DNA of 64,000 nucleotides from Carcharhinus longimanus (GCA_030264375.1 JASCQW010000190.1:87156360-87220359), one strand, 5' to 3'. Positions 1,628 to 54,569 are shown, counted from the stretch's first letter. Numbers and translations are program-made. Notes: a model not told the origin generated them from the sequence alone.

Positions 1628-4299
1628 NNNNNNNNNNNNNNNNNNNNNNNNNNNNNNNNNNNNNNNNNNNNNNNNNNNNNNNNNNNNNNNNNNNNNNNNN
1701 NNNNNNNNNNNNNNNNNNNNNNNNNNNNNNNNNNNNNNNNNNNNNNNNNNNNNNNNNNNNNNNNNNNNNNNNNNNNNNNNNNNNNNNNNNNNNNNNNNNN
1801 NNNNNNNNNNNNNNNNNNNNNNNNNNNNNNNNNNNNNNNNNNNNNNNNNNNNNNNNNNNNNNNNNNNNNNNNNNNNNNNNNNNNNNNNNNNNNNNNNNNN
1901 NNNNNNNNNNNNNNNNNNNNNNNNNNNNNNNNNNNNNNNNNNNNNNNNNNNNNNNNNNNNNNNNNNNNNNNNNNNNNNNNNNNNNNNNNNNNNNNNNNNN
2001 NNNNNNNNNNNNNNNNNNNNNNNNNNNNNNNNNNNNNNNNNNNNNNNNNNNNNNNNNNNNNNNNNNNNNNNNNNNNNNNNNNNNNNNNNNNNNNNNNNNN
2101 NNNNNNNNNNNNNNNNNNNNNNNNNNNNNNNNNNNNNNNNNNNNNNNNNNNNNNNNNNNNNNNNNNNNNNNNNNNNNNNNNNNNNNNNNNNNNNNNNNNN
2201 NNNNNNNNNNNNNNNNNNNNNNNNNNNNNNNNNNNNNNNNNNNNNNNNNNNNNNNNNNNNNNNNNNNNNNNNNNNNNNNNNNNNNNNNNNNNNNNNNNNN
2301 NNNNNNNNNNNNNNNNNNNNNNNNNNNNNNNNNNNNNNNNNNNNNNNNNNNNNNNNNNNNNNNNNNNNNNNNNNNNNNNNNNNNNNNCAGACCCTCGTCC
2401 ACTCACTTCAACTATTTATATCCCTTTGCAGATGTTCTGTGTCCTCTGCACACTTTGCTCTGCCATTCATCTTACTGTCATCTGCGAACTTTGACACACT
2501 ACACTTGGTCCCCAACTCCAAATCTTCTATATTAATCATAAACAATGATTTTTTAATTTAAGTTTTTATGAGGCAGAATGTCAGTATAAGTAAACGAGGA
2601 TATGGGTATTAGATAGGTAGGCTTCATGTTGATTAGGATATGTGCAGCATTTTCAACAATTTATTCATGGAGGGGGATAAAATGCTGACATTGGCGGTTT
2701 GAGTTTGGAAATAGCAAAGGGATGTATGGAAGTTTCCGTGACAGGATAATATTGGAATGGTAGAAGATGTAAAGAATGTTGATGGTGGATAGGATATGAG
2801 ATGTATTTCTCAGCTCTGGATAGAAAGTACAAATGGTCTTGATTAGCCTAAGTGGATGACAGGGAGGGAGACCAGTGTAAAGTCTCAAATCTAATCTGAG
2901 GAATTACAAAGAGGATAATATAGGAACCATGAGAAGTGAATGCTAGCAATGTGCTGGCTGCAGTCAATAAGGCAAGAATGGAACCATATAAATTTAATCT
3001 GACAAATGTGAAAGGTTTGATAAAGGCAAAGTGTAACTATGTAGTTGTAGTCATAGGCAATGTCACTCGACATTGCCTAGGCTGCTTTTTTGCTCTGTTA
3101 AGCGTAGAATCCAGGCTGGATAGATTCAGATCAGGAATTCAGCAATGGAGCATTTATACAAATAGCAATTTATTTGTGCCCTCATCTCAATAGCAGACTC
3201 AGAAATATTCTTGAAAATTCCTTTACGCATCAGGTGGGAATGGTATGGGCAGGAGATGGATTAACACAAAAGGGAAGTTTGTTCCTCATTCTAAATGCAC
3301 TTCAAAAACTCCATAATCTTTCCTTACTTGAAATCAGATGCAGGAAGGCTGTCCATCTATTAGGGTATGCATACCATCTTAACTGTGTGCTCACGCAGTC
3401 TCAATCTACCAGCAGAAGCTAGAGACAGGTGGTAAGTGCCCACCAAGTGTTTAGTTTAAATTTCAAAGCTTCTTTGTGGGTTAAATGTAGTCAGGGTTCT
3501 TCCCTGATTGTGTTAGTTACCCATTTCCCCTTTCCTCATTTACTGGATTATTTCCCTGGGTCTCCATCAGCAGCCGATTCCCCTCTCCCCACCAACCCCT
3601 TTCATCCCTAACATGGACTTCCACTCCCACCCACTGACCTTAACTTAACCCTCACCTGTTTTGGGCAGAAGTCAGTACCAGAACATTCAAATGAAGCCTG
3701 CGAGTTAAAATCTCTGGAACATCATGCTCTGGGAAACCAGATGGAGTGCTGACTGCTTCAGCCTCTGATTTCCATCCCGGGTTAAAATTAGAGTTTGAGA
3801 GCCTAATAAGTTACTAACAAACTATAGCTTGCCATACAGGTAGCAGTACATTTCAACATTAAACACTTCAATTCACTCCTAGTTTGTGCACATCGAGTTA
3901 TTGTAAAGCTTAATTTAAATCAGTTTGTCATTCTTTAAATGATTTTTTCCAATATTAATTCCTACCTTTTTCAATACCCCTCAGTCCTTGCAACTCCCAA
4001 AGTTGCCGCTATACTCTGCCACTAACGCACAAGCTGTGTTGAACACTGTTCTTTGCCGTCACTCCCTGTCCCATGCTCACTTGGCACTGTTACATTAGTT
4101 TCCGCCCCAGTGCTCATCTAGCACTTATTAATCAACCTCTTGGTACTCATGTGATACCTTGTTGTTACCTCTCCTTGATTTGATCAACATAACTATTAAA
4201 CTCCACTTTTAGTTTAAATTGTAAATGCTTGAAAATTTGAAATATTATTGACATTGATAAAAGCACCACTTTTACCTAAGGATTGCTGCCCCAACCACT

Positions 4300-4605
4300 G
4301 AACTCAATATTCATCCCTCCATTGTTGGCTTACTGTGGCTATACTATGTACTATCCATGGGATACAATGCAGCTAGATTACTTTGGCAACATCTCTTTCA
4401 ACTTGTCCCTGGTGTTATGAGGCAGCAGTGTTAGCCACTGTGCTACCATCTGTACCATCAGGAAGGGCAAAAGCAGTTGTGTTTTTGGGACATCATCACC
4501 TCCAAGTTACCTTCCTTGTTGCTTAGCATCCTGACTTCAACATGTATCACACTTACCTTCATCTGTACAAGCTCTTGGAATTCCCTACCCAAGAGTATTG
4601 TGGAA
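4300..4605 (+). mobile_element. Decayed 3' region of the CR1/L2-type LINE seen at 28209-29045, with a short V-SINE head fragment (~4405-4448, minus)
   Basis: Colinear similarity to 28660-28920 (catcatcacctccaagttaccttcc...catcctgactt...tcttggaattccctacc). Confidence 0.55.
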
Positions 4606-5370
4606 GTTAAAATGCTCAGATTTGAAAAATTCATGCCTTCTGTACAACAGCTTGTGAGAATGTTATCAGTTTCAGACCTTCAAGGGAATCTATATGCTTT
4701 CAGGATAATCTTCTTTTGCATAGGCCTCATAACATTCTGCTTTTTGACCTTCATTGGAGGGTGAGCAAGATCAAACTTTTCCATAACAAATATCAAAGAC
4801 AAGATATGGGGATATGCTATGCAAATGAAGGATTATCAGAAGTCAATTTTTTATTGCATGAAAAAGGGCAAAAAGCCAGGTTTTAATTTACAATATGTGT
4901 GTCAATAAAGAATGTGAACAAAATGCTTGTTCCTGATTTGCTGTAATTGACCATAACTGTGAAGTTCAGAACACCTCTAGCATTTTGATGGACGAGGGGA
5001 GTTCTCCTTGTGCACAAGTAATTAAAAACCTTTCGTTGGATACATGATGTCCAGCGTTGTTTGTATTAAGAGTCAACTAAGTGTGCCTAAGGTTGCTGGT
5101 ACCCAAGGATCTCTGAAGATCACCATAAGGACTACAACAATTCAAGGTGAAAACTCATCACTGCCATGACTGGAGAGCTAGGGATGGACAATAGATTGGA
5201 GAGCTAGGGATGGACAAAGTCTTGCCAACATTGGCAAAATCCTGAGTGTAATTTTTGAAAACATGAAATATGAGATTGGCAGTGAGTTGGGAAGCACCTC
5301 CTTGGGCTAGCACACAGTGTGCTTTGCAAATTTGTTTCTTCTACCAGGTGACCCTTCCAATGCATTACCA

Positions 5371-5641
5371 AGCATGGTAGCACAGTGGTTAACACTGCTG
5401 CCTCATAACACCAGGGACTTGAGGTCAATTCTGGCCTGGGGTGACTGTCTATGTGGAATTTTCACATTCTCCCATGACTGTGTGCATTTCCTCTGGATGC
5501 TCCAGCTTCCTCCCAAAGATATTCAGGTTAGGTGGTAAATGCAAGGTATTATGGAGAGGGTCTGGGCAAGATGCTCTTCAGAGAGTTAGTGCAGACTCAG
5601 TGGGCTGAATGGTCTGCTTGTGCACTGTAGGAAGTGTATGA
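5371..5641 (+). mobile_element. HE1/V-SINE-type tRNA-derived SINE, CR1-type tail
   Basis: A/B-box head GCACAGTGGTTAACACTGCTGCCTCA, V-domain TGTGGAATTTTCACATTCTCCC, tail GGGCTGAATGGTCTGCTTGTGCACTGTAG. Confidence 0.85.
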
Positions 5642-5747
5642 CAATGTGAATAAATTGAGGTACAGTGCCCAGATTATATAATCCATTAAATAGGCTGATG
5701 ACCGTGGAGAATCTTAATGGGTCAACCACTGCACTTGATTTAGTTAG

Positions 5748-6285
5748 GATCTTTCACATCTGCAGGATGCCCCAAATGACTTATTTTTAAAGCATTGTCA
5801 CTTTTGTAACATGGGCAGACATCACAGGCAATTTTACACAGCAAAATCCAACAGAAAGCAATTAGTTAAATTACCACTTAATCTGTGGTAAATATTACTT
5901 AAGACATTGAGGAAAATGCTTCTACTTTTCTACAAGAAAACATCCAGTCTAGAGGGACTGATCATTTAAAAGAAGGGCATTTCTGATATTGCAGCATTAG
6001 CTCAATATTTTACTGAAGTGTCGGCTTCTGCTATAGAACTTGTAAATTATCTTGTAAATTGAGTTTGTGTCTATATATGACCTGTTTGTGAACACGAGTC
6101 CTCACTCACCTGATGAAGGAGCCTGAGACTCTGAAAGCTAGCACTGTCAAATAAACCTGCTGGACTTTAATCTGGTGTTGTGAGACGTCTTACTGAGCTT
6201 ACCCTAGTCCAACGCCGGCATCTCCACATCATAAGATTTGAATCCATGACCTNNNNNNNNNNNNNAGAGTGCTACCTCTGAAACG
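5748..6285 (-). mobile_element. Ancient DeuSINE-type (SacSINE1/AmnSINE1-like) SINE interrupted by a Penelope fragment
   Basis: Decayed match to the recalled reverse-strand Deu domain (atctttcacatctgcaggatgcccc...gcatttctgatattgcagcatt...actgaagtgtcggc); head resumes at 6232 (gatttgaatccatgacct...agagtgctacc). Confidence 0.55.
6038..6230 (+). mobile_element. Penelope-like element terminal fragment containing a minimal hammerhead-like motif
   Basis: CACCTGATGAAGGAG...CTCTGAAAGCTAG followed by AATAAACCTGCTGGACTTTAATCTGGTGTTGTGAGA. Confidence 0.7.
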
Positions 6286-7306
6286 AGAATAACATTTCAA
6301 AATAGTTAACAGGATTGCTTTTTCTCCATGTTACATGGGGTCACCACAATACTGGCTAATCAGCCTTCACATCAACAAAGGGTCCTTATTGGATTTGATG
6401 GGTGCTTTCACCATTGGATGCTCTTGCTGTCATTATAAGCCTGCCCTCATGTATTTATAACTCTTCAAAGACAAATAACTTTTGGAAGTCGTACTTTTAT
6501 ATGCACTTTGTGCTAAAATTATATTGCTATTTTAGATTTTGCTGCTTTTCTCCTCATTGTTTGATGTTCATTTTGAAAGTAGGAAATAACTGTGTGCTGC
6601 AGCTTCAAAGCTCTCCTTTGAGCGATGTTCTGACATGGTTGATCTGATTTGAAGAACGTAGTCATTGACATGCAGACACTTGGTAGCATTGCCAACAAGA
6701 AGCAAAAGCTCCTCCCCAGTCAAAAACCAACTAACTTTAATGATTGGCAACATTGATGTGTTTACAATGGTTTGGCATTAGAAATAAGTATCTGACTTGA
6801 AAGTTGAATTTTTTTTGAGGATGTTTTTCTTTATGTCTGAATGATTATGAGTACAGCCAGGGTGAAAGCCAGGACACTGATTTGTAAACTTATGGTTGTA
6901 GCATTTAAATTAAAGACACATCAGGTGTCATTGTCGAAATGGGCTCAGTCCTTTCCAACAAAAAGACAGGTTGTTTGAGCCTAAAATAAGGAGGGCATGC
7001 AATGGATACCAATAATAACGGCCTCAGACTGAGTTCCAGGCTGTATACGGAGATCAGAACAACATTGTTTCCCAGAACAATTCCAACGTTTCTCCCATTT
7101 AACAGTAACGAATGATGTTCTTCCTGTCCCATTAAAGATAATAAATATACTTAAATACAGTTCAGACAAACAGATTTTCATTCAAAAGCTGTATGACCTT
7201 GACAGTAAGAAGGCTCTTGGCCTTGATATCTCTCTAAATATCCTGGAGAGCATTTTCCTGCCCAAAACATTGTTGTTGTTAGGTAGGTTATCAAGGTAAA
7301 TTATAA

Positions 7307-10570: not shown

Positions 10571-10805
10571 TGTGGTAATGATACACTTTCTCAGACTTTG
10601 TTTGAAACATTAAAGGTAAATTATTCATAAGAAGAGCTATACCTGGGGCCAGCAGTCAGCATGGCTGCTGGTAGGTCCCTACATGGCTACTGCCTCAGAG
10701 CAGACTCCACCCCATGGGGTGTCTACTCACACTCTGCCCCAGTTGGTCCCCCAAGCCAGGTGACCCTCTTCTGCGGTGTTGCCCTTAAAGGGACAAATCA
10801 TCACA
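10571..10805 (-). repeat. 3' LTR of copy A (235 bp, TG...CA)
   Basis: Minus strand reads TGTGATGATTTGTCCCTTTAAGGGC...GTATCATTACCACA; preceded by purine tract TAAGGGAGGCA; homologous along its length to 48977-49208. Confidence 0.85.
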
Positions 10806-10935
10806 TGCCTCCCTTATACAATCTTCCATAAGTTGCTCAATCCTAAATTTTAACTATAAATTATACAGATAAATACTAAACTTTAACTATAAAATATACA
10901 GATAAATTATACAGATATACAAATAAATTTTAACA

Positions 10936-11290
10936 TTAATTATACAGATAATTATAAATTGAGGCTTCAAGGGTTTTTCTGTTTTTTGTGAAGTGGTGTA
11001 GTTCTGAGATGCTTCCATGGATTAACACTGACAGGACCTGCAATAACAAGTACCTCTTCTTCTCTTCTGGCACAGGCAGTTCATTATTACTTGCTTCCAC
11101 AGAGACATCAGTTATGTCTATGACAGTTTGTTCAGGCACTTCAATGCTTACAAGTTTGACAGCATTTTTTGATGGCAACACTGACTGCTGCAGCGTATCT
11201 CTACGCCTTAAGTGATCGATATGCTTATAAACAACCAATCCCTCCATGTCTACTGGGTACGACAAGGGTGCAGTCTCATTCTGCAGATCT
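10936..11290 (-). pseudogene. Gypsy integrase C-terminal remnant
   Basis: PLSYPVDMEGLVVYKHIDHLRRRD fits the Gypsy GP(L/V)SYxV...(R/K)H(V/I)D(H/Q)LR motif; ends in an ELRRSTRxRK-like decayed tail (ELHHFTKNRK). Confidence 0.75.
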
Positions 11291-11538
11291 GACTTGATCC
11301 ACTAGCAAATTTTTATGTTATGACAGCATGTCATATTATGTACTTAATATGGGTTTATTATTAGCATAACACTGTCCACTGATGAGATCTTGAGGCTTGC
11401 ATGTTTAAACATAAACACTTTTTTGGAAGGCTTCATCTATGACAGTTCCAAATGTACTGTTAACAGTTCTTTTTCACAATCTCAGTCTGTCACGTGTGAA
11501 GAAATGGTCATAGTACTCTGTTTCTGGGATTAGATAGT

Positions 11539-12636
11539 GGGCAGAATTCTCCCAAAAAAATTCAAAGTGTCATGTTTGTGTGAAAAGTGGAGTAATACAC
11601 GTTGTTTTTTTTATGGGAGTTCAGTGAAGAATCTCCCACACTCTGTGCACTGCAGAGGCCACTAGTATGAACATTATTAAATTTCAGGGGGCAGGGCGTA
11701 GTCCCGTTGGAGAGGCTGGAATCAGCACTCTGAGCGGGCCACTGCGCATGCCCCGATCTGTCAGTGGTGAGATTGGTGCATGTGTAGTGGCCCTGCACTG
11801 CTGGCCTCCCGATTGCTGGCCAGCCCCACAAACCCTGCAATGCCAGCTCTCCATCCCCCAACAGCCCGATCGCTGGGTCCCCCGACCATTTGCAGGCACA
11901 GCCCCGAACACCCCCCTCTGGTGCGCCCTGATCTCAAGCTTTCCCCNNNNNNNNNNNNNNNNNNNNNNNNNNNNNNNNNNNNNNNNNNNNNNNNNNNNNN
12001 NNNNNNNNNNNNNNNAATGGCGGGGCAGGCTCGAAGGGCCAGATGGCCTACTCCTGCTCCTATTTCTTATGTTCTTATGTTCTTATGATCCCGATGCAGA
12101 GTTGCAGCAGGAACCCCCACCAATTGCATCCTAGCCCTGCCCCCATCATGCCCATCTGCCCAAGCCCTGCCACCATATTCCCTGTCCCTTGGCATTGCCC
12201 CATGCCCAATGGGTAGTGCCAAGGTGCCCCCTGAACATTGGCACTTTGCCCGTTGGGTAGTGCCGGGGGGCCCAGGCTGGCACTGCCAGGGTACCAATGC
12301 CCAGGGGGCACTCCTCCCCATTGCCTGACCCTCTGGAGGGCCCCAATTGCCCCACTTCACTCTGGCAGTGTCGGGCTGCTAGTTTCCTGCAAGTGAGGAG
12401 CTACTGTAATCCCCGCTGGAGTGAAGTACTCTGACAGGGTGGGAAATACTAGAGGGCCCAGAGAGTGTTCAGTCCCAGACCCACTAGTCAAATTTGAATT
12501 ATATTAAAATGACTATTTAAATGATCCTTGCACCTCTTCGCTGATCTCCGATGCTGATCTGATGGTTCTGGAAATCTGGCACTGGGAGATACTAGCATGA
12601 ACCCTGCAAATTGGCTGATGCGAGAAACTCTCGGCC
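11539..12636. mobile_element. GC-rich non-autonomous Harbinger-type element nested in copy A; itself holds a CR1 3' end (12016-12088)
   Basis: Starts GGGCAGAATTCTCC; interrupts the homology between copy A and copy B. Confidence 0.7.
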
Positions 12637-12709
12637 AGCATATCTTTCATTGACCATTTTATCATATTGGTTCTTGTGTTTTTTTATTAATGTGACCATT
12701 TCAGCAATC
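12637..12709 (-). pseudogene. SYCP1: SYCP1-like coding fragment, distal piece (copy A)
   Basis: Translates IAEMVTLIKKHKNQYDKMVNERYA versus recalled vertebrate SYCP1 IAEMVALMEKHKHQYDKIIEERDS. Confidence 0.78.
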
Positions 12710-12711
12710 GT

Positions 12712-13854
12712 GGCCGCAATTCTCCCGCTGCAACGTTTCTGTCGGGTCCCAGTGGGAGACGCGTGCCTGTGGCCTTGAACAGGGATTTGTGCTTGTGCCA
12801 GAAACACATGCACATCTCCCAGAGCCAGCGAACAGTCACTGGTTAGACCATGCTGGAAACCGGCAGGAAGGCAGGTAAGTAATTTAAATCTGATTTAAAT
12901 ATGCGTATTAGATCATTATCTGATCAAATTCCCAACCCCACCAGGAGTATTTCATTCCAGTGGGGATCAGACTAGCTTCCCACATTCGGGGAACTAGCGG
13001 GGTACCCTGCTGGAATGAAAGGGGTGAATTGAGGCCCCCCCAGGAGCTTGGGCATGGGGGGTGGTACCCCTAGGCATGGGCACCCTGGCAGTGCCAGCCT
13101 GTGCCCCCTGCCACTGCCCAGAAGGCATTGGGCAGTGCCAAGGGGGTGGGGTCTACTGTGCATGGGGCCTAGCAGCAATTGGTGGGAGTGGGTGTCCTGC
13201 TGCCACTCTGCAGACAGGATCGATCTGGAATGGAGGGAAGGCAGCAATTGGGGCAGGCTGGGGGGGGGTGCTGGTTTGCTGGNNNNNNNNNNNNNNNNNN
13301 NNNNNNNNNNNNNNNNNNNNNNNNNNNNNNNNNNNNNNNNNNNNNNNNNNNNNNNNNNNNNNNNNNNNNNNNNNNNNNNNNNCTCTGAGGGGGGGGGGGA
13401 CGGAGTCTGACCCGGGGAAGTCAATGGGAGGGGGGTGGGATCTGGCAGAGTGAGGGGGATGGGGAGATCACCACTGCTGGGCAGGTGGGGCCTGGACATC
13501 AAGACGCTATAGGACTGGGGGTGTCAGGGCTGGCTCGGAAATTACTGTGAGACCGTGATCAGGCTGTGGTTGGGGGCTGGAGGGGCAGCACTGCTGGGGT
13601 CCCAGGCTGGTCAGTGACTGGGTTGGCCAGCAAACGGGAGGTTGACAGTTTGGGGCCACTGCACAGAGTTCCACTCTGGTATGAATAGGCCCTGCCCCCT
13701 GGGTTTTTAATGATACTCACAACTGGGACCTCTTCAGTGAGCAGAGTGTGGAGATTCAGGTGAGGAGCTGAACTGACAGAACCGTCTGGATTTAGAACAG
13801 TTTTCCTGCCAATTCAGCACTTTTGGGGGAATCACCCCCACCACCCCTCCTCCC
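12712..13854. mobile_element. Second GC-rich non-autonomous Harbinger-type element, splitting the SYCP1-like frame
   Basis: GGCCGCAATTCTCC...GGGGGAATCACCCC termini; same family as 47892-48501 (shared end GGATTTAGAACAGTTTTCCTGCCAATTCA). Confidence 0.75.
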
Positions 13855-13856
13855 TA

Positions 13857-14066
13857 TTTGGGCATGTAATGTCAATTTCTTACTCTGTCTGAATTGCTGA
13901 TTCTGCTGTCAGTTTCGATGCATTACCTCTTCAGCTAATTTCTCATTGACAAGTTTCCCTTCTTCAACTCTTATTCTCCTGATTCAGTTCTTCACTGGAC
14001 TTGTTCTTATTTTCTGGTTGCTTTTCATTCATTATCTCTAATTTCTCCTTCTTCTTAATTTCATTT
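13857..14066 (-). pseudogene. SYCP1: SYCP1-like coding fragment, proximal piece (copy A)
   Basis: With frameshifts reads EIKKKEKLEIMNEKQPENKNKSSEELNQENK / EKLAEEV / KLTAESAIQTE*EIDITCPN versus recalled SYCP1 KQVENKNKYIEELQQENK / ENLLEEVEKAKVIADEAVKLQKEIDKRCQH. Confidence 0.72.
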
Positions 14067-15530
14067 TGTCAATTTTTGCAACTTCTTTCTTCAAGTTTCC
14101 CTGTCAGCCATTTCATCATGTTGTTTTAACATCTACTCTGGACCTTTATTTCTTTTTGCTGAAACCTTTCTATGTTCAATTGTTCCTAACTTTTGAAGCC
14201 TTTAATTTCCACATTTCTCCAGAGGAGAGTCTATCATACTCTTACTGGACACATACATTTCACAAGTATAACCTATTGTAATTGTTGATCAGGTCTGTCT
14301 CCAGTAGAATGTTTACTTGTTTCCATTTTGCAATTCGCTTGTTGTCCTTCAATTATCAATTAGTCTCTTTGATTGCCCCTGTTCCGAGATCTTTAAATGC
14401 TCTTCAGGTGTCCTTCATTGCTTCCTTCTGGGGTCTTTTATTACCCTCCTTATGGGGTCTTTAAGTGCCCTTCATCTGGGTCACCTTTTGCCAACTTTCT
14501 GAGGTCTTAGATTTTCTCCTAGTAGAGGGTTTTTTTGCTCTCTTTGACTCCTGTAAGATCCCCCATTGAAGCTCTTTCTTGAAGCTTTCATTTCCTCCTC
14601 TAGGTCTTCTGTCGCCCAATCCTTGATATATCCATTGCTTGTGGACATTTTCTAAGGGTTGCCTTCTTTCCAGGGCTTCTCCAATTTTCCTGTTCATAGC
14701 CTTTTGTTCCTTCTTTGGGTGCTGTTTTAATTACAATATCACTTTAAATGTATTGCCACTTTAAGATGGTTATCTTTTATTTCATTGAACTGCCAGTGCT
14801 GCTGGCTCTCTCTGTGTTTTTCCCACGCTTTTAGAGTTGAGTTTTGGCTGGTCTTTTTGTTTGAATTTTTAAAAGTTCCGCTTTTCCTGTTTGTGATCTG
14901 TGTTTTTTTTCTTCTGGCTACTTGGAGAGTCCTCTCTTTCTCTTTTTTGATGTGTCAGTCTTTTTTATCAACATCACTGGAACGCCAAGTCCCATCGGGC
15001 CCTTGTTTATATACTGGTTAACTTCTTTTGAAAATTGTTGAGCACGTGTCTTCTTTTTTACAAGTTCAGAACTGCTCTGTTTAAAGTCCAGCAGCACAGG
15101 GATTGCTGCTACTCAACACCCGCAAGCTCTTCTCTGATCGGGAACTTTTCAATTTCAGCCTCTTTATTTTCCCGTGCTTTGGGATAGTTCACAGCAGCTA
15201 CCTGGGGCATTCCCTTCTTTTTTACTTCAAGCCTGTTTTCTGTATNNNNNNNNNNAAAACTGTGCAGCAATTCTTTTAAAAAAAACTTAAGCTATATTTT
15301 CTTTTACACATAAAGGCACAGCTCTTGCTTCGCGGGGCTATTTTCTCTTGATTTCTTTTTTCTCTTTATATATTTCTAAACTTTTAACTCCACCAGCCAT
15401 TTCAGGTTTCTTCTGCATCTGTCCTTCAGAGTCTGGCAATATTTTAACATCTCAAGTGGGTCTATTCACCTAAAGAGGTATTCTGGTGAGTTAATTTTCT
15501 CAACCTTTGTTTTTATAGAGCACTGGCCCT

Positions 15531-27457: not shown

Positions 27458-28208
27458 TGTAGGAAGTATCGTCGGCTCCCAGTCTGAGGCCGGTCAGTTT
27501 GTATGGATTACACCCGAGCAACTGACCCAGTCCTGGAGGGGTGGGCGCTTGACCGGCTTAGTTATCACCGTTAGGTTTCCACCGGCGGCAACCCCCCTTT
27601 AAGGAGACACCTCTGGAAGCGCGATTCCACTTCGGATCCCCTTTAATCCCATTCGAAATCAAAGACACGGATGAGTTTCCCTATGTCAGTTTTATTCGAT
27701 CTTGCAAGAACGGGTGCGGTCCCGTAGGTACACACACACTTACAATACATGATTATACCTTATATATACATTCGCGAGTTCGCTTTTCCTTCTCTTTTTC
27801 ATTGGTTCCCGCGCTCCCTTATCTTAAACTTATTTAGCTAGATGGTCAGCAATGATCGTTTTTCTTGTAAACTTTTCTTATGCGGTCAGCGATAATCGTT
27901 TCTTTTGTAACCTTGTACGATCAGCGATGATCGTTTCTTTTGTAACCTTGTACGATCAGCGATGATCGTTTCTTTTGTAACCTTATACGATCAGCGATAA
28001 TCATTTCTTTTGTACCCCGTTTTATACGGTCAGCGACGATTAGCGATAATCGTTTTTGTAACCCAACCCCTGACTGTTACTTTGACCGCAAACAACTGAT
28101 CTCATACTGGTGGTCAATCACCTGCCCCTGAAAGGCATTTACACAGCATTTTCCCGCCCTCGGCCAGTCAGCCCACAATTTCAAAAATTGCATCTTCCTC
28201 CTCTCACA
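27458..28208 (-). mobile_element. Young ERV-like LTR (751 bp)
   Basis: TG...CA ends; CpG-rich; on the minus strand, in order: tandem repeats, CCAAT (~27803), TATATATAA (~27765), AATAAA (~27693). Confidence 0.85.
27844..28062. repeat. 35-bp tandem repeat in LTR U3 (about 5-6 copies, outer ones degenerate)
   Basis: Unit TACGATCAGCGATGATCGTTTCTTTTGTAACCTTG. Confidence 0.9.
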
Positions 28209-29045
28209 ATGACCTCTCCAATAAGAGAGAATCTAACCATCACATCTTGACATTAAGGGATTTTCTGGCTGCACTCGCCCCAAGACTAGAAAATCCCACC
28301 CTAGGTCACCAGGCCTTTGTATGGTAGGTGTCCTGCCTGCTACGATTCCCGTGGTGGGCGGAATGGGAAAATGCTGTCCTAAATATCATTACCATCTTTG
28401 AACATCCTGGGTGTTAACACTGACCAAAAACTGAACTGGGTTATCCATATAAGTACTATGGCTTCAAGAGCAGGTTAGAGGTTAAGAATTCTGTGGTGAG
28501 TAACTCACCTCCTGATTCCATAAAGCCCGTCTACCATTTACACGACACAGGTGAAGAGTGTAATGGGACACTCTCCACTTACCTGGATGAATGCAGCTCC
28601 AAAGAAGCTTGACACAATACTGAACAAACAACCTGTTTGATTGGCACAAACATTTAATCTCTCCACTACTGATGCACAATGGCAGCAGTGTGTATACCAT
28701 CTACAAGATGCACTGCAGCAACTCATCAAGGCTTGTTAAACAGTTTCTTCCAAACCCACAACTATTACCATTTAGAAAGGGAAGGGCAGCAGATACCCGG
28801 GAACACCATCAAGCGGAGGTTCCCCTCCAAGTCACTCACCATCCTGACTTGGAATTATATTGCTGTTCCTTCACTGGCACTGGGTCAAAATCCTGGAACT
28901 CCCTCCCCAACTGTACTGTGAGTGTACCTACACTACAAAGACTGCTGTGATTCAAGAAGGCAGCTCACCACTGCTTCCTTGAGGGCAATTAGGGATGGGC
29001 AATGAATGCTAGCCTAACCAGTGACATCCACATCCTATGAATGTA
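28209..29045 (+). mobile_element. CR1/L2-type LINE 3' fragment with a short MITE inserted (~28257-28379)
   Basis: Homologous to 46690-47170; reading frame MxHSPLTWMNAAPKKLD; ends CACATCCTATGAATG. Confidence 0.8.
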
Positions 29046-32207: not shown

Positions 32208-32284
32208 AAAGGCATTTACACAGCATTTCCCGCCCTCGGCCAGTCAACCCACAATTTCAAAAATTGCATCTTCCTCCTCTCACA
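32208..32284 (-). mobile_element. 77-bp end of a second copy of the 27458-28208 LTR, next to a 100-N gap
   Basis: Matches 28131-28208 apart from one indel and one substitution; followed by ACTT. Confidence 0.9.
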
Positions 32285-33139
32285 ACTTGCACTGGGAACC
32301 AAAGCTAGAAATGAGAAAACAATTCCTTCTCTGCTATAAGCAGTCTGCCATATTGTAGCTTTCTACACTCCATTCCTTTATTTCAATGAGCACAAACTTC
32401 ATCAATTAATTTACTGAGCAAAATAAAGGATAAAAAGATTTCTCGAGTAGCTGTGTTGTTATTACTTCTGTCTGCCATTTAATAGTCCTGCAGCTTCTGA
32501 TTCTTATCTTACTAGATATTGTATCTTTATCGCGTTTAAGAAATGTGCTGATGTTTCCAGCTAGTTTTCTGAATACATGGCTATAATCTGCTCCACTTGG
32601 ATTTATATTTGATCTATTATTGCCACATGTTTTGGGATACTGTGAAAAGTATATAACTATAATTGCTGTCGTGGCTACTGCTGTAACTGTACCCTGTGAA
32701 AACACAAAGAAACAAATTAAAGCAAGGAATTAACTGAGTGTCAAGGAGAGAGGGATGAAAGGGCAACATGCCAATAAAAGAGAAGTACAATTTTAAAAAC
32801 ATATTATGCTATTATATCACTAGCTGCAAAGTCATCCACCATAGAGGTGGTGGGAGTTGGGGGGGTGGGGGAATCTGGCAGAATTCTACATACACTGACT
32901 TCTTGAGAGGAATGGGCAAAGAGGGAGGGAAACTTGGAAGAAGAGTTACCCCAGGATTTTCCTGTATATCTCCTGTAGAAGTACTGGGGCGGGCCATCCT
33001 TAGTATTGACAATATCCAGCACAAAAATATCAAGAGGAAAAGNNNNNNNNNNAGGGATTATTTAAAACAAAAGAAAAATTACAACCTCAGAGTTATTTTA
33101 ATTCCAAATTGTACAAGAAATGTATTTTCTTGATCTTCT

Positions 33140-46664: not shown

Positions 46665-48690
46665 GAGCAACTTTCACAGCATGAAATTGCCAGGCAATGA
46701 CCACCTCTAACAATCTAAGCGAATTTAACCCTTTCCCCTTGATACTACCATTACTGAACACCCCCTCCCCGCCCCCACCATAAATATTCAGGGATTTACT
46801 ATTGACCAGAAACTTATAACGGTCAGTCATGTAAGCACTGTGGCTACAAAAGCAGCTCTGAGGCTGGAAATTCTGTAAAAAGTAGCTCATCTCCTCACTC
46901 CCCAAAGCCTGTCCACCATCTCTAAGGCACAAATATAAATATGAAAAATACTCTCCACTTGTCTGGATGAATACAGCTCCAACGACACTCAAAAGGTTCA
47001 ACATCACCCAGGACAAAGCAACCCATTTGATTGGCAATCCATCCACCACCTTCAACATCCACTTCCCCTATCGCTGCTACACAGTGGCAGCAGTGTGTAC
47101 CATCTACTGCAGCAAGTCACCAAATCTCCTTCAACAGTGTTTTCCAAATGTGTGACTTCTATCTAGAAGTTTGAACTGTGCCACTGTAGGCAGCTCAGTG
47201 GTTAGCATTGCTGCCTCACAGCGCCAGGGACCCAGATTAAATTCCCAACTTGGGTCACTGTCTGTGTGGAGTTTGCACATTCTCCCCATGTCTGCATGGG
47301 TTTCCTCTGGGTGCTCCAGTTTCCTCCCNNNNNNNNNNNNNNNNNNNNNNNNNNNNNNNNNNNNNNNNNNNNNNNNNNNNNNNNNNNNNNNNNNNNNNNN
47401 NNNNNNNNNNNNNNNNNNNNNNNNNNNNNNNNNNNNNNNNNNNNNNNNNNNNNNNNNNNNNNNNNNNNNNNNNNNNNNNNNNNNNNNNNNNNNNNNNNNN
47501 NNNNNNNNNNNNNNNNNNNNNNNNNNNNNNNNNNNNNNNNNNNNNNNNNNNNNNNNNNNNNNNNNNNNNNNNNNNNNNNNNNNNNNNNNNNNNNNNNNNN
47601 NNNNNNNNNNNNNNNNNNNNNNNNNNNNNNNNNNNNNNNNNNNNNNNNNNNNNNNNNNNNNNNNNNNNNNNNNNNNNNNNNNNNNNNNNNNNNNNNNNNN
47701 NNNNNNNNNNNNNNNNNNNNNNNNNNNNNNNNNNNNNNNNNNNNNNNNNNNNNNNNNNNNNNNNNNNNNNNNNNNNNNNNNNNNNNNNNNNNNNNNNNNN
47801 NNNNNNNNNNNNNNNNNNNNNNNNNNNNNNNNNNNNNNNNNNNNNNNNNNNNNNNNNNNNNNNNNNNNNNNNNNNNNNNNNNNNNNNNNNNTGGTCCCAC
47901 GGGTATGGGCACCCTGGCAGTGCCAACTTGTGCCCCCAGCATTGCCCAAGGGGCACTTTGGCACTGCCCTTCAGACATTGGCAGTGTCAAAGGGGCAGGG
48001 GCTCTCGTGGGTGAATCCTAGGGGCAATTAGTGGGGGTGGGGGGATCCCGCTGCCAGTTAGCAGACTGGATCGGTCTGGGGTAGAGGGATGGCAGTGATT
48101 GGGGCGGTCTGGTTTGTGGGGGGAGGGGGAGTCGCCACTGCTAGGGGGAAGTGGGCTGTGCTCCAGGACGGGGGGAGATATTAGGGCTGCCCGGAATTGT
48201 TGTGGGGTCTGTGATGAGGCTGTGGTGTTGGGGGGGGCTGGAGGGGCAGCACTGCGAGGGTCCTGGGCTGGCCAGCGATCGAGGAGTCTGACAAATCAGG
48301 ACCATTGCTCATGCGCAGAGTTCCGGAACTGTCAGACTCTAGTGTGAGTAGGCCCCGTCCCCCTGGGTTTTCAATGAGATTCACGATTGGGGCCCCTGAA
48401 ATGCAAGAGTGGGGAGACTCAGGTGAGAAACTGGACTGAGAAAAGAGTCGGGATTTAGAACAGTTTTCCTGCCAATTCATCACTTTGGGTGAATCACGGC
48501 CTATACTGCCATTCCTTCTCCTTCATTGGGTCAAGGTTCTGGCATTCCCTCCCTAACTTGATGTTGGGTGTGCCATCATCACATTATTCAAGAGAGCAGC
48601 TGACCACCAGCCTCACAAGGGCAATAAGGATTGGGTAACAAATACCAACCTTGCTAGTGATGCTCACATCCCATGAATGAATTAAAACAA
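46665..48690 (+). mobile_element. CR1/L2-type LINE 3' fragment interrupted by a V-SINE head (47189-47328), a gap and a DNA transposon
   Basis: KYSPLVWMNTAPTTLKRFNITQDKATHLIG; LINE resumes near 48503 and ends CACATCCCATGAATGAAT. Confidence 0.8.
47892..48501. mobile_element. GC-rich non-autonomous Harbinger-type element (same family as 12712-13854)
   Basis: Shared blocks GGGCACCCTGGCAGTGCCA and GGGGGCTGGAGGGGCAGCACTGC, and shared terminus. Confidence 0.75.
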
Positions 48691-48976
48691 AGTAACCAAT
48701 CTGAAAGGAATTGCGTAGGTTCCTCCTTCATCCACTGGGTAGCAGTATTGTAACACTTTAAATCTCTGTTTTTGTCTTGCTGGTTACATAATAGGGTGCA
48801 GCCTTAGAACCTGTGAAAAGGAATGTATCTCTCAATAATCCACTTAGTGCTGCTGAACCACGAACTGGATTATGACAATTGCCATCTGGTGGTGGGATAG
48901 AAATAGAAGCTCATAATCTGAAGTAAAAACAGCAGTGTGACTTGGTAGGGAATTGGTATTGATAGATGTGTGGGAA

Positions 48977-49208
48977 TGTGGTGATTGACACTTTAATGGC
49001 AACACAGCTGAAAAGGGTGACTAGCTTGGGGGGGGGTTGCAATTAGGGATGAGAGTGGGTAATCACCCCTGGGTGCGAAATCTGCTCCTGGGCAGAGAAT
49101 ATGAAGGGAGCTGGGACAGTCATATGGGTTGCTGGCCTCTCTACAGTTTTTCTAATTAACAAATATCTTTTGTGTTTCTAGTGAAGGCTGGGGAAGTGCA
49201 TCATTACA
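48977..49208 (+). repeat. 5' LTR of copy B (232 bp, TG...CA)
   Basis: TGTGGTGATTGACACTTTAATGGCAACAC...GTGCATCATTACA, homologous to 10571-10805 (minus). Confidence 0.85.
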
Positions 49209-49210
49209 TC

Positions 49211-49223
49211 TGGCGATGAAGAT
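49211..49223 (+). promoter_or_regulatory. Primer-binding site of the Gypsy element
   Basis: TGGCGATGAAGAT two bases after the LTR end; decayed form of the common Gypsy TGGCGACGAGGAT. Confidence 0.7.
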
Positions 49224-50861
49224 ACAATTATGAAACTGCCTCTGGCCCAACACCTGTGAGAATCTTGTTTTAATCGAAGTCTGAGAAACAGTACTCAGCC
49301 TAGTGCCTCTCTTTGGGTGAATCCCATTTGAGATGTTGTGATATTGCCAGGCCCTGAGTAATGGAAAATCAAGCTGCATGTTTGATAGAGAGAGAGCATT
49401 ACAAGACCGCTGGGCCAGAATCCACAAGAAGAATGAGCAAAATGCAGAAACGTACCTCAACTCACATTGTTGACTAGAGGCATGGTGGTCTGTGACACTC
49501 AGTGCATTGGAGAGATGGAGGGACAGACACAAAACAAACCTAAATCAAGAACTGTGCTTTAAGGTTAAAAATAGGAACAAAGAGTTGCTGCAAAGATTTG
49601 TTTTGAAGGGGAAAAGAGAACATAGGAAGTAATGTTTTGGATTGAAGAACTTCCCCCAGGAGTTGTATTAGAAAGTCAAGAGGCTTAGACGAACAAGTTC
49701 CTTTTTGGAGCACAGCCTGTGGGGGTTCCATGGCAGCAATTGTTGCATTTGTAGACTTCAAACAGAGAAATTCCAACATTTTTTGTGAAAAGGAGAAATC
49801 CTCGGCCTATTTGAAAAGAAGAAATTAAAAATCTTTAACATAAGCAATGCTCCTGAATGGACCACGCTGGATCTTCCAGTGAAATTGATGGACACATCAT
49901 AAAAGAAAATAAAACGGATTCTCCAGGCAGCAAGGAAAACAAAATCTGCAGAAATCACTAAAAGGGCTTTCTTTCAGTAAAATTGTTTTAAAAGTTCAAA
50001 ACAAAAGCAGACAGGCTCTTACCAAAACTTCAAAAGTGCGGAAGAACGCAGAAAGTTGTCAGCTGCTAAAAAGTTCAATGAAAAATAAGTGAAAATCTTA
50101 AAGTAATTCATTTAAAGTGAGTAATATATTTAATGTGGTAATGCACCTAAAGTAGCAATGGATGGGAAAATTGGAGAAGACCCCAGATAAAGACCAATTC
50201 TTAAAAAAGGCCCATAGGCAATGAAGACCTCAAGGAAAAGGCAATGCAAGACTTCAGAGGAGGCACTGAAAATCTTAAAGAAGAGGCAAGGCCAGGCCTC
50301 AGAGCAGGCAATGCAGACAGCAAGAAAGAGGCAACAGAAGATCTCAAAGAAGAGACAGCTAAGACCCATAAAAGTGGGCACTGTGAGACCCCAGATGGAG
50401 GGCACTGAGTCCCAAAGGGCAATTAAAGACACCAGAAGGGTAGGCAATTCAGGACCACAGAAGGAAGGCATTGCAAGATCCCAGAAAGCGAGTCATATAA
50501 GATCCCACGAGAAGAACGACAAGGAAATTGCAGAATGGAAACAAGTCAACACTTCATTGGAGGCAGACCTGATGAAATGTAAAGCCAAAAAGGGTTTGCT
50601 TGAAGTTAACACAGGTAAAATTGAAGGTTCCATTTGAAAATGCATATGTCCAGTAAGAACATGACGGATTCACCTGGGAAGAAGTACAAATGAAAGACTT
50701 CAAAAGAAATTAGAAACTATTCAACATAACAAGGAATCAACAAAAAGAGTTAAAGCTCTAGAGAAAACAAAATATCAAGATGAAATGACTGACAGCAAGC
50801 TTGAAAAAAGAGTTGCAAAAATTTACAAGATTAAGTTAAGGAGTACTTAATGAGAGAATGT

Positions 50862-51135
50862 AGAATTAGCTGAACTCCATGAAAAGCAACTCAAAAATAA
50901 GAACAAATCCAGCGAAGAATTGAATCAGGAGAATAAAAATTTTGAGAAAAAAGATTTGATCATGAGAAATTAATTGAAGAGGTAAAAAACATTGAATCAA
51001 CTGTTCAGAGTCAACTATTCAGACAGAGAAAGAAACAAATTATGAGCCAGAACAAGATTCCTGAAATTGTCGCAACAATAAAAGAAGCACAAGAACCAAT
51101 ATGATAAAATGGTTAATGAAAAAGATGCTAAATTG
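50862..51135 (+). pseudogene. SYCP1: SYCP1-like coding fragment (copy B)
   Basis: With frameshifts reads EKQLKNKNKSSEELNQENK / EKLIEEV / SQNKIPEIVATIK / KHKNQYDKMVNEKDAKL. Confidence 0.75.
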
Positions 51136-51581
51136 AAATGCTGGAAAGGGAAGAAATTTTATCTCATGATCTATGTACCAGAAACAGAGTACTACAATAT
51201 TCCTTCACATGTGACAGTTGAAGATTGTGAAAGAACTGTCAAGACATAAGATTTTATTATATTGTGATGACATATATCTACATGCATTATAATGTAAGGT
51301 GCTCAACAGAGCAAGGATCGATGTGAGATTGGAGAGTGGCACCATTCACAGAATGATGAACGTAGTCAGATAGTCAGAGAATAATTTAGGAGAGAACTCA
51401 GTAACCAGCGTACCTGCATGGAACAGCTCCATGCAAGATTACATTTTGAACTGTACACAGTTAAAACCTACCAAAAAACACTTTATGTTTAACAAATCGC
51501 AGGATCTCATCAATGAGCCATGACCACTGCAAGTATAAAAAACACACATTAAGAACATAATATGACATGGTGTCATAATAT

Positions 51582-51690
51582 GAAACTTTGATAATGGGTC
51601 AAGTTGGATCCCCAGAATTATTGCCACTGAGACTGGACCCCTGTCGTACCCAGTAGACATGGAGGGATGGATCATTCGTAAATATGTAAA
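51582..51690 (+). pseudogene. Gypsy integrase C-terminal remnant (continues at 53462-53665)
   Basis: NFDNGSSWIPRIIATETGPLSYPVDMEGWIIRKYV. Confidence 0.8.
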
Positions 51691-51694
51691 AAGT

Positions 51695-52012
51695 TGTTCT
51701 TGGGATTTGGGTGTTCTTGGCTGGGCCTGCGCTTATTGCCCATCCCTGAGGACAGTTAAGAATCCATCACTTTGCTGTGTATATGGAATCACATGTAAGC
51801 CAGACCAGCTAGGGATGATAGATTTCATTCGTTAAAGGACATTAGTGAATCAGATGGGTTTTTAATGATAATGATTTCATGGTCATCATTGGACTTTTAA
51901 TTCCAGCTATTTATTGAATTCAAATTTCATCATCTGCCATGGGGGATTTCATTCCAGGTCTCCAGAACATTGCCCTGGATTACTAGTCCAGCAACAATGC
52001 CACGACATCACT
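51695..52012 (-). mobile_element. Second-family tRNA SINE nested in copy B
   Basis: Reverse complement of the 18349-18700 family. Confidence 0.85.
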
Positions 52013-52089
52013 GTCTCTTTCATCCTGATACACTTGCCTGCACCCTCCTGTGTGTTATGTCTTCCGTTTTGTGCCACTGTGAAGATATC

Positions 52090-53200
52090 CTCATGTGGAA
52101 GATAACCTTCATCACCCTTTTCCAGTTCCTGCCCATCTAAGTCTTCATCATCCAAGGAAGTTGGAGCCTCCTGCATATCTCTTTCTGGCAAGTGATTTTC
52201 CCCTTGGACCCCGCACAACCTGGTGATTCAGCAGACACAAATGATGTGGAATACCCTCTGTGAAGAGTATAGCAATGTCCCACTTAAGTTGTTCAAACAC
52301 CAGGAGTATGTCTTCAGGATGCCAATGGTTTGCTCAATGATGAACCTTGACACAGAGTGTGCCACTTGTACCTCTCCTCTGAGGCATGACACATGGTGTA
52401 ATAAACCATCTCTTCAGCAAGTACCCCTTGCCACCCAGGAGCCAACCCTGTACACACTGTGACCCTTTGAATATCTGAGGCACCTGGGAGTGATTCAGGA
52501 TCTAGGAGTCATGGGAACTCCCAGAGTACCTGGCACAGACATGCATGATCTGCTTCTGATAATGGCAGATCAGCTCAATGTTAGGAGAGTGGAACCCATT
52601 AAAGTTAATAAAGATCAAAGCTATTACCAAGGAGTTCTTAAAGCAACATGTGTATTCTCAGTTGTACCCTGCACTTTGGTGAAGCATGAAATCACTACAA
52701 ATGCCAGACATCTCTCAGTTTGACAGGCTTTAACCCTTGTGAACTTTACATAATGATGAACCTTACTGTATCCGTCACCTCCATTATAGGTTTATGTGTT
52801 GCAGCCTGAGAGATGCTGCATCAGTTCCCTGTGGAAATAATTGAGTATGTCGATGAGCTTTAGGGGCACTTTCAGAGATAGCCTCTTATTCCATGCAGCA
52901 TATGGTTCTCTCATAGAATTCGGTAGATATTTGGATATGTGTGGCACTGCCATCTACAAATAGGAAAGGTGCTTTCGGGCAACTCTTGGTAGTGCCAATC
53001 ACCCCTGTGGGATGGATCTAACTTCCTCAGCCTCTGGATCTTCCTGGGACTCCTCTGGACCATGCTCCTCAGGCTGAGACTCTTTTCTAAGCTGTGCTTG
53101 AGGTGTTAGACCCTTCTTTGCCTCCTCAGGCTGAGCACTGCCACCAAGAAGGTAGCACTGGATGCAGTCTCCATTCTGCAATCCTCTTTCTTCCTGTGGA
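52090..53200 (-). pseudogene. PIF/Harbinger transposase relic nested in copy B
   Basis: Minus-strand SISQAATHKPIMEVTD, FINFNGFHSPNIELICH, CARYSGSSHDS, GWLLGGKGYLL, RFIIEQTIGILK motifs. Confidence 0.88.
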
Positions 53201-53689
53201 CAGATAGATCCAAGCAATTAATATGGATTAGTTAGTCATTCCGATTCTGACTTCTCAATAAAGCGTTCATGACTTTTATCAACTGAGACTTCATTTTCAT
53301 TTTGAGAACACAAGTGTGAGGGTTCCTCCTGAAAGGGCCCCTAGAAAAGCCTCTTCCCATATGCATCAGATTGCTCCTTTAGAGATTTCCTTACAGTTTC
53401 ATTTTTAAACTGCTAAACTGCATCATTGAAGTGGGGTTTCAAGTTGATGGTTCTATTCTTCAGAAGTAGCGGGAGATTCCAGCAGTCAGTCTTGCCATCA
53501 AGAAACATTTATGAACCTGAAAGTGCCAAAGTACCTGTTCGACCTGTAATGGACGTAACTGATTTTCTCCTTGGAAGCAAGTAGTAATTAACTGCCTGTG
53601 CCAGAAGAGGTACCTGTTATTGCAGTTCTGTAATCTGAGATGCTGTGGAAGCATCTCAGACTACAGAATTACACTGGTTAGCCATGGTA

Positions 53690-54333
53690 TTGGATAAGGA
53701 ACAATCCATCATATCAATAAAGAATTGGAATGGGTCAACTTCAATGGTGTGAGAACTGATCAGGCGCAGGTAAATGGAATCAAAGACTGGGAGGTAAAAT
53801 TATAACTGAACAATGGGATGTTTTTAAAGTTATAGTTCAGGCAGAATAAAAGAAAGGAGTCACAGGATGGGGGATGATGGTAGGGTAAGTAAACCTAGAG
53901 GTCCTTGAATGAAGAAAGGGATTGAGATTAAGGTGAAGCAAAAAAAAGATGCATATGGTACATGTTAGATTTTAAATGCAATTAAGAACTAGGTTGAATG
54001 TAGAAGGTTCATGGGGTGAAGTGAAAAAGCAAATAAGAATGGCAAAGGCAGAGTATGGAGACTGGCAGCTAACATAAAGGGGAATCAAAATTGGCTTATA
54101 AATAGAAAGGATTGAAGAAGAGTAAGGCTGATTAGAAATCTAAAAGGGGATTGACACATGGAGTCAGCATGGTTTAGGGACTAAATGAGTGCTTTGCATA
54201 TACCTTATCAAGGAAGAAGATAGCACCTAAGGGTAAAAGGCAAGAGAAAGGAACAAGTGAGTTGCTCTTGCAGGGCACTGATACAGAATTGGCAGGCTGA
54301 ATGTCTGTACTACAACAATTCTATGATTCTATG
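53690..54333 (+). mobile_element. Decayed CR1 fragment with (ATTCTATG)n tail
   Basis: gagactggcagctaacataaaggggaatc and taaatgagtgctttgcat CR1 linker motifs; tail CAATTCTATGATTCTATG. Confidence 0.65.
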
Positions 54334-54569
54334 AAGCTTGGGCTGTTTTAATTGATGGGGCTGATTCAAATAACCTTCAGTTGTTTCTTGCCTGATGCTT
54401 CAAAGACATCAGGCCCAACTGGTGGAAATGGAAATGGTGGTGAGAACATGTTTTCTTTGAACACTTCTCATTTGTTTGCAATAAATATATTGAAAATGGG
54501 GAAAGTTGCTTGAATGGCCAAAAAGGATGGATGTGGGAGGTCACATGATAAAAATTGCTGGCATACAGA

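Follow-up and report, generated by a model that had tools for sequence, protein, structure and literature searches.

The window analysed here (a stretch of 64,000 nt from Carcharhinus longimanus, located on contig C190) contains two copies of a non-autonomous LTR family that carries an intron-less, frameshifted SYCP1 sequence (50680-51184 in copy 1), and the explanation that we favour overall (probability about 0.8) is that a circular RNA of SYCP1 was copied once round into an LTR element (B), which was later nested within another one (A). Both window copies are later composites, in which a second LTR pair encloses the founder body together with the founder's 3' LTR; in the layout of the family, the B portion lies between LTR-A with a gag-like stub on one side and an integrase-like tail with LTR-A on the other.

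Layout of the window elements and their LTR vehicle

The features of copy 1, and the extent of copy 2, are as follows:

48977-49208, plus strand: outer 5' LTR (LTR-A), with TG...CA ends; 437 first-look genome candidates
49211-49223, plus strand: putative primer-binding site of the outer element, with a TGG start
49303-49339, plus strand: gag-like stub (presumptive) of the outer element, common to copy 2
49340-50679, plus strand: founder (B) element body, i.e. 5' internal part, minisatellite and left flank
50680-50743, plus strand: 3' part of SYCP1 exon A (from base 80, A80), joined directly to the beginning of exon B; 30/36 and 21/26 identical
50745-50945, plus strand: fused SYCP1 exons C, D and E, continuing into the initial bases of exon F
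50937-51150, plus strand: end of SYCP1 exon G, exon H and 5' part of exon I, fused
51151-51184, plus strand: 5' part of SYCP1 exon A, placed after exon I; 26/34 identical
51185-51262, plus strand: founder right flank; the founder purine-tract region (~70 nt) is absent here
51263-~51560, plus strand: internal second LTR (LTR-B, the 3' LTR of the founder), present at either end in 5 founder copies
51570-51690, plus strand: first half of an integrase-tail-like piece (presumptive) of the outer element; 985 genome candidates
51690-53457, no strand assigned: later insertion of ~1.77 kb; other copies are without it
53458-53675, plus strand: second half of the outer element tail
10575-15480, minus strand: copy 2 of the composite family; its 3' LTR-A (10805-10575) is preceded by a purine tract

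The LTR and the primer site reported at the 5' end in the preliminary description of this DNA were both recovered; the primer site is of TGG type, and the LTR has a relative (68-71% identity) in the 3' LTR of copy 2. The element limits given there (48977-53665) hold as regards the 5' LTR, but copy 1 has no 3' outer LTR after its tail, and the stretch preceding the second half of this tail is a later insertion, which opens with 330 nt of a common interspersed repeat. In a similar manner, the segment first recognised as SYCP1-like (50862-51135) was correctly named but proved to be only part of the real span (50680-51184), and the region described as cargo, which does have the SYCP1 content ascribed to it, also contains the second, internal LTR. 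The founder body of copy 1 includes a purine-rich minisatellite (~50180-50500) and a left flank that is common to SYCP1-free sister elements, while copy 2 is without a 5' LTR and has its cargo split by two insertions (14218-13855, 12709-12636, 11551-11521). A pol core (protease-RT-RNase H-integrase) was seen in neither window copy, and no autonomous partner came to light. The family may be of the Gypsy type, as a motif resemblance suggests; typing with Pfam, a representative library and one fetched locus returned nothing. The gag assignment of the stub (49303-49339) is likewise our presumption, and so is that of the integrase tail (51570-51690), which we make from motif resemblance; Pfam gave no matches for the latter piece, and a sequence search gave four, all of them unnamed and repetitive. 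Rfam returned 0 matches in window positions 48000-54500. Just after the internal LTR-B (51545-51580) a short fold-back or primer-site-like stretch lies between two direct repeats, and is gone from many copies.

Full-circle copies are bounded by LTR-B, with a primer site and a purine tract of their own, and both LTR-B were present in 5 of the 21 loci examined (pairs 63-78% alike). LTR-A pairs are 71-83% alike in the four copies compared, one of which (L106) shows a clear 5-bp target duplication that is unclear in the other three. Among the 29 loci found with the LTR-B of the window, the B purine-tract region is missing from 22 and retained by 2, and another 5 were unscored or anomalous; it is possible that this tract would be lost because an internal priming site interferes. 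As the phylogenetic tree (from which L124 and L126 were excluded as too short) is star-like and does not separate B and A/B as clades, the probable order, B and then A/B, is drawn from nested deletions. A possible nested intermediate is seen in L099 (minus strand, 3437-6644), where a B copy, 5' LTR included, separates two halves of an LTR-A and is bracketed by two SINE copies (86% alike).

SYCP1 as the source of the cargo, its age and decay

The SYCP1 likeness that had been proposed for the cargo is borne out by protein as well as DNA comparisons. Two window fragments match the Pfam SCP-1 profile in order, weakly (profile 600-624, E 0.009; 711-734, E 0.006), one fragment matches the solved human SYCP1 (E 0.004), and blastx against 79 SYCP1 and UACA proteins retrieved catshark SYCP1 at E 5e-8 and 1e-7. 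At the DNA level the segment matches successive host SYCP1 exons (~71-90% identity), with exon junctions fused and introns absent, in agreement with the spliced source suggested earlier. The host SYCP1 gene occupies contig C142 (37,666,457 to 37,280,102), where it is complete and collinear, and with the window on C190 the segment is, as supposed, unlinked to its parent. Its contribution to the cargo consists of eleven consecutive exons (named here A-K; 925 nt, covering 141 kb of the gene), which all have AG/GT ends, are separated by introns of 0.2-34 kb and hold 308 codons without stop; they correspond to residues 527-812 of a catshark SYCP1 isoform, the residues 814-878 of which follow K. Over the 400 kb in which the gene lies (84 kb of this being N), host matches common to several copies are confined to exons A-K, and in a set of 51 loci eight exon pieces were matched by 12-40 loci each. 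A conserved N-terminal exon of the host gene (L024, G000:C142:37660122) appears to end at a GC donor and not at GT.

Over the 2.68 Gb of genome searched, whose closest named proteins come from sharks, the 26-nt fused H|I junction gave 132 matches (<=3 mismatches; a floor, given ~15% decay per copy) versus 0 for the reversed pattern, which agrees with the proposed spread by a non-autonomous LTR family. A search with the cargo yielded 703 first-look candidates (40/40 scored places matched) and one with LTR-B 228 candidates; for the SCP-1 profile 57/57 scored places matched, and the 25 excised loci comprised 24 family copies and one real exon on C142.

The copies share 84-85% identity with the host and 77-81% with one another. 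As they keep the ancestral residue at 7/8 host-derived and 5/6 catshark-derived sites (5 more sites being unpolarised), the capture is placed near the split of the host and catshark lineages, and we take the copies to date from roughly the time of the catshark split. Decay is evident in every copy examined, and stops in the host frame occur in all but one (26/27). Coding selection, to which the raw dN/dS between copies (0.57-0.69) could have pointed, was rejected, since the ratio rises to 0.97-0.99 with transition-weighted sites, and is similar in shifted frames. A protein role for the SYCP1 cargo is not supported, and neither is the notion that it could act as a coiled-coil decoy.

Circular exon order and its explanation

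The cargo starts at base 80 of exon A, runs through to exon K and then resumes with exon A from base 1. The last base of K is joined to the first base of A in 12 distinct elements (30 loci examined; L129 and L133 counted as one element), 9 of which have no bases added or missing at the join (one of these nine has a base missing just upstream of it) and 3 small deletions; the 12 joins represent one founding event (n = 1). Agreement with the host amounts to 32/33 at A80 versus 1/33 at A79 where the cargo starts, and to 12-14/14 at A80-84 versus 3/14 at A85 where it ends. As A84 is the last base in this terminal agreement, and A77 and A79 differ, the right switch falls within A73-84, and with a start at A80 the cargo is consequently one turn long, give or take ~7 nt. 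By chance, start and end would coincide this closely at ~15/925, or 1/41 if exits require AGAA. One copy (L121) has exon B whole and hence keeps nearly the entire circle. In the window subfamily part of exon B is gone, as are most of F, the beginning of G and everything from the end of I into the start of A; the K-to-A join, intact in other copies, is thus deleted, and despite these deletions a piece of exon A is kept after exon I (51151-51184), which is a remnant of the circular exon order. In a contig under another organism label (one record) the exon A match extends only from A84 to the acceptor, as expected of a founder copy. The end of the cargo runs straight into the element flank, with no poly(A) tail. 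These features fit one turn of a putative back-spliced circular RNA from SYCP1. A single estimate of RNA coverage did not extend to exon A, and tells neither for nor against such a circle. Inverted repeats in the introns flanking A-K are uninformative (5 pairs, versus 6 and 5 in two control intron pairs).

Seven further loci (L134, L137, which is a host exon, L138, L140 and L143-145) were dropped as junction loci, being A-rich chance alignments, and an endless reading frame on the circle was dismissed because its length of 925 is not divisible by 3 and the frame meets a stop three codons past the join.

The element as it is without SYCP1 was recovered by a variant left-flank search, in which 3 of the 4 new loci (L188, L189, L190) proved to be elements lacking this cargo. 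All three sisters share the left flank, to which L188 and L190 add the right flank and LTR-B; the sister family is large (603 genome candidates). The cargo site is occupied in the sisters by a mutually conserved stretch of 137-149 nt (not SYCP1-like in two of them, marginal in one, i.e. 4 of 200 shuffles), which indicates that the circle replaced ~150 nt of the element and was not added to it; single-crossover insertion of a DNA circle is excluded by this replacement, from which we infer two template switches. The founder may have had a parent other than these sisters. Upstream, they hold internally deleted pieces (70-77% identity) of a 973-codon host frame, a giant exon (G000:C163:13373783-13375227) that is UACA (93% to a shark UACA); for the decayed sister frame no protein relative was found, Atlas giving generic coiled coils only. 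Taken together, the SYCP1 cargo and the UACA pieces point to at least two captures of host RNA by the LTR-B lineage. In L098 (4300-4440), L123 (735-985) and L187 (1501-1760) a long sister-type left flank leads into SYCP1 where exon B ends; this subfamily is without the A80 start, and is possibly a sister x founder recombinant. A zinc-finger gene exon adjoins the family copy in L187 (minus strand, 2950-3080).

In the scenario that we favour, SYCP1 pre-mRNA in a germ cell of an ancestral shark would have been back-spliced from exon K to exon A, and the resulting 925-nt circle would have been co-packaged with RNA of the non-autonomous LTR element B. In retroviral biology minus-strand synthesis reaches the right junction first, and RNase H removes the copied RNA template in these enzymes. 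The reverse transcriptase may thus have switched from element RNA to the circle inside exon A (A73-84), with copying running back over the back-splice and once round, until it would have arrived at its entry point, found the RNA there already consumed, and switched back to element RNA ~150 nt further on. The product presumably spread as founder family B, one copy of which would have ended up inside the second LTR element A; after deletions this composite, to which both window copies would belong, could have spread further. In sister L188 a 12-mer at the right junction best matches the circle at A73-84 (10/12, 1 of 925 positions), which may be a weak hint to the entry site, given that L190 is without this match, that in L188 it fades at 20 nt (13 of 925 positions equal) and that host letters in the A73-84 region have changed among sharks. 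The likeness at the left junction (2-4 of 5) is unremarkable, so that homology fails to explain the exit at A80; exhaustion of the template at the entry point after one turn would explain it.

An identical K|A join would be produced by a linear RNA with repeated exons, whether through trans-splicing or through an ancestral A-K tandem duplication that has since been lost or lies in assembly gaps, and the 42-kb intron after K does contain 16,217 N. Such a template, however, does not explain why start and end should coincide to within ~7 nt modulo 925, no second exon A was found in the 400-kb host region (84 kb of it N), and the nine cartilaginous-fish SYCP1 proteins that were matched have one exon-A segment each, for which reasons we regard it as improbable. 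We place somewhat lower still a series of three switches on linear SYCP1 mRNA, the first onto A, the second from the 5' boundary of A to where K ends, and the third back to the element. Exon K closes with the same three bases as the exon before A (the two ends are 11/12 alike at 4 nt out of register), a linear jump by way of this 3-base match would yield the same K|A join, and PMC5131818 describes LTR reverse transcriptases as capable of several switches; on the other hand, the jump must land exactly on a donor and an acceptor, the better 11/12 register predicts 4 extra bases that are absent in the 12 joins, and the exit must still coincide with the entry point.

The preliminary description had envisaged a simple internal stretch of ordinary linear mRNA, captured within the LTR-A element and perhaps retained as a coding decoy. 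The window copy does show eight exon junction regions in a row that are collinear, but the exon order is circularly permuted, with the 5' part of exon A sitting after exon I or K and a donor joined to an upstream acceptor, and the dN/dS values of 0.97-0.99 and the stops in 26/27 copies argue against a decoy, which leaves this version very improbable. Its setting has also to be revised, as the element that made the capture was of a different LTR lineage and probably came to lie within the LTR-A element only afterwards.

Relation to known systems and significance

HERV-K/FAM8A1 and maize Bs1 are reportedly LTR elements with spliced host sequence, and Bs1 is said to hold several genes. The shark lineage, which carries SYCP1 or UACA, is in this respect like Bs1; the cargo of HERV-K/FAM8A1 and Bs1 is collinear and has no back-splice, unlike that of the shark family. 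Closer in its junction is the case of the mouse circRFWD2-derived pseudogenes, of which 33 high-confidence copies with LTR-rich flanks (MMERVK10C-int) have been reported, by a mechanism that the authors call mysterious (PMC4897178). Both systems show a non-collinear back-splice junction, many copies and an association with LTRs, but in mouse the LTR link is a flank enrichment (PMC4897178), whereas the shark cargo lies inside elements with two LTRs, comprises a whole turn, has mapped switch points and a replaced segment, and belongs to a family that is far older and has passed into a second LTR lineage.

LTR-mediated retrocopies, as described in the main text of PMC5131818, form by double template switching with linear mRNAs. 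The shark family resembles them in that host RNA replaces the element interior and goes through further rounds as a non-autonomous element; as for the short similarities reported at their junctions (PMC5131818), those in the shark family are 10/12 on the right in one sister and 2-4 of 5 on the left. The templates treated in that main text are linear (the word 'circular' occurs 0 times in it), and no cartilaginous fish is among the species listed in the passages considered. The shark family thus behaves as an LTR-mediated retrocopy and at the same time carries the back-splice junction of a circRNA-derived pseudogene. A connection between circRNA pseudogenes and LTR template switching is offered as a suggestion in part of a review (PMC5408686). 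In the literature searched, neither the shark family nor a one-turn capture is described; subscription journals, repeat databases and bioRxiv supplements lay outside this search, and a repeat-library entry may exist.

We consider it reasonably probable, if less so than the circular origin itself, that nature has recorded in this family how an LTR reverse transcriptase copied a host circular RNA exactly once round and was halted by its own RNase H, in which case a one-turn cargo opened in mid-exon inside an LTR element would be a general signature of circRNA retroposition. It would also preserve a fossil SYCP1 back-splice of the shark germ line from near the ground-shark root, in an LTR lineage with repeated capture of coiled-coil genes. 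The route of circular RNA into genomic DNA was left open in the mouse study (PMC4897178), and the shark family maps both switch points, from which comes a testable rule (i.e. entry and exit coincide on the circle) that can be checked on the mouse circRFWD2 copies and in vitro. Moreover, the family would give a deep-time date for one particular back-splice of a meiotic gene, which is predicted to occur in living sharks as well. In practice, the SYCP1-like and UACA-like repeats, which number in the hundreds, will cause errors of annotation and of circRNA calling in shark genomes.

The window holds further repeats: one family occurs at 13073-13835 (inside copy 2) and at 47902-48497 (just upstream of copy 1), a 35-nt tandem array lies at 27846-28051, and a 79-nt direct repeat (97%) is found at 28131-28209 and again 4 kb away at 32208-32285, where it adjoins an assembly gap.
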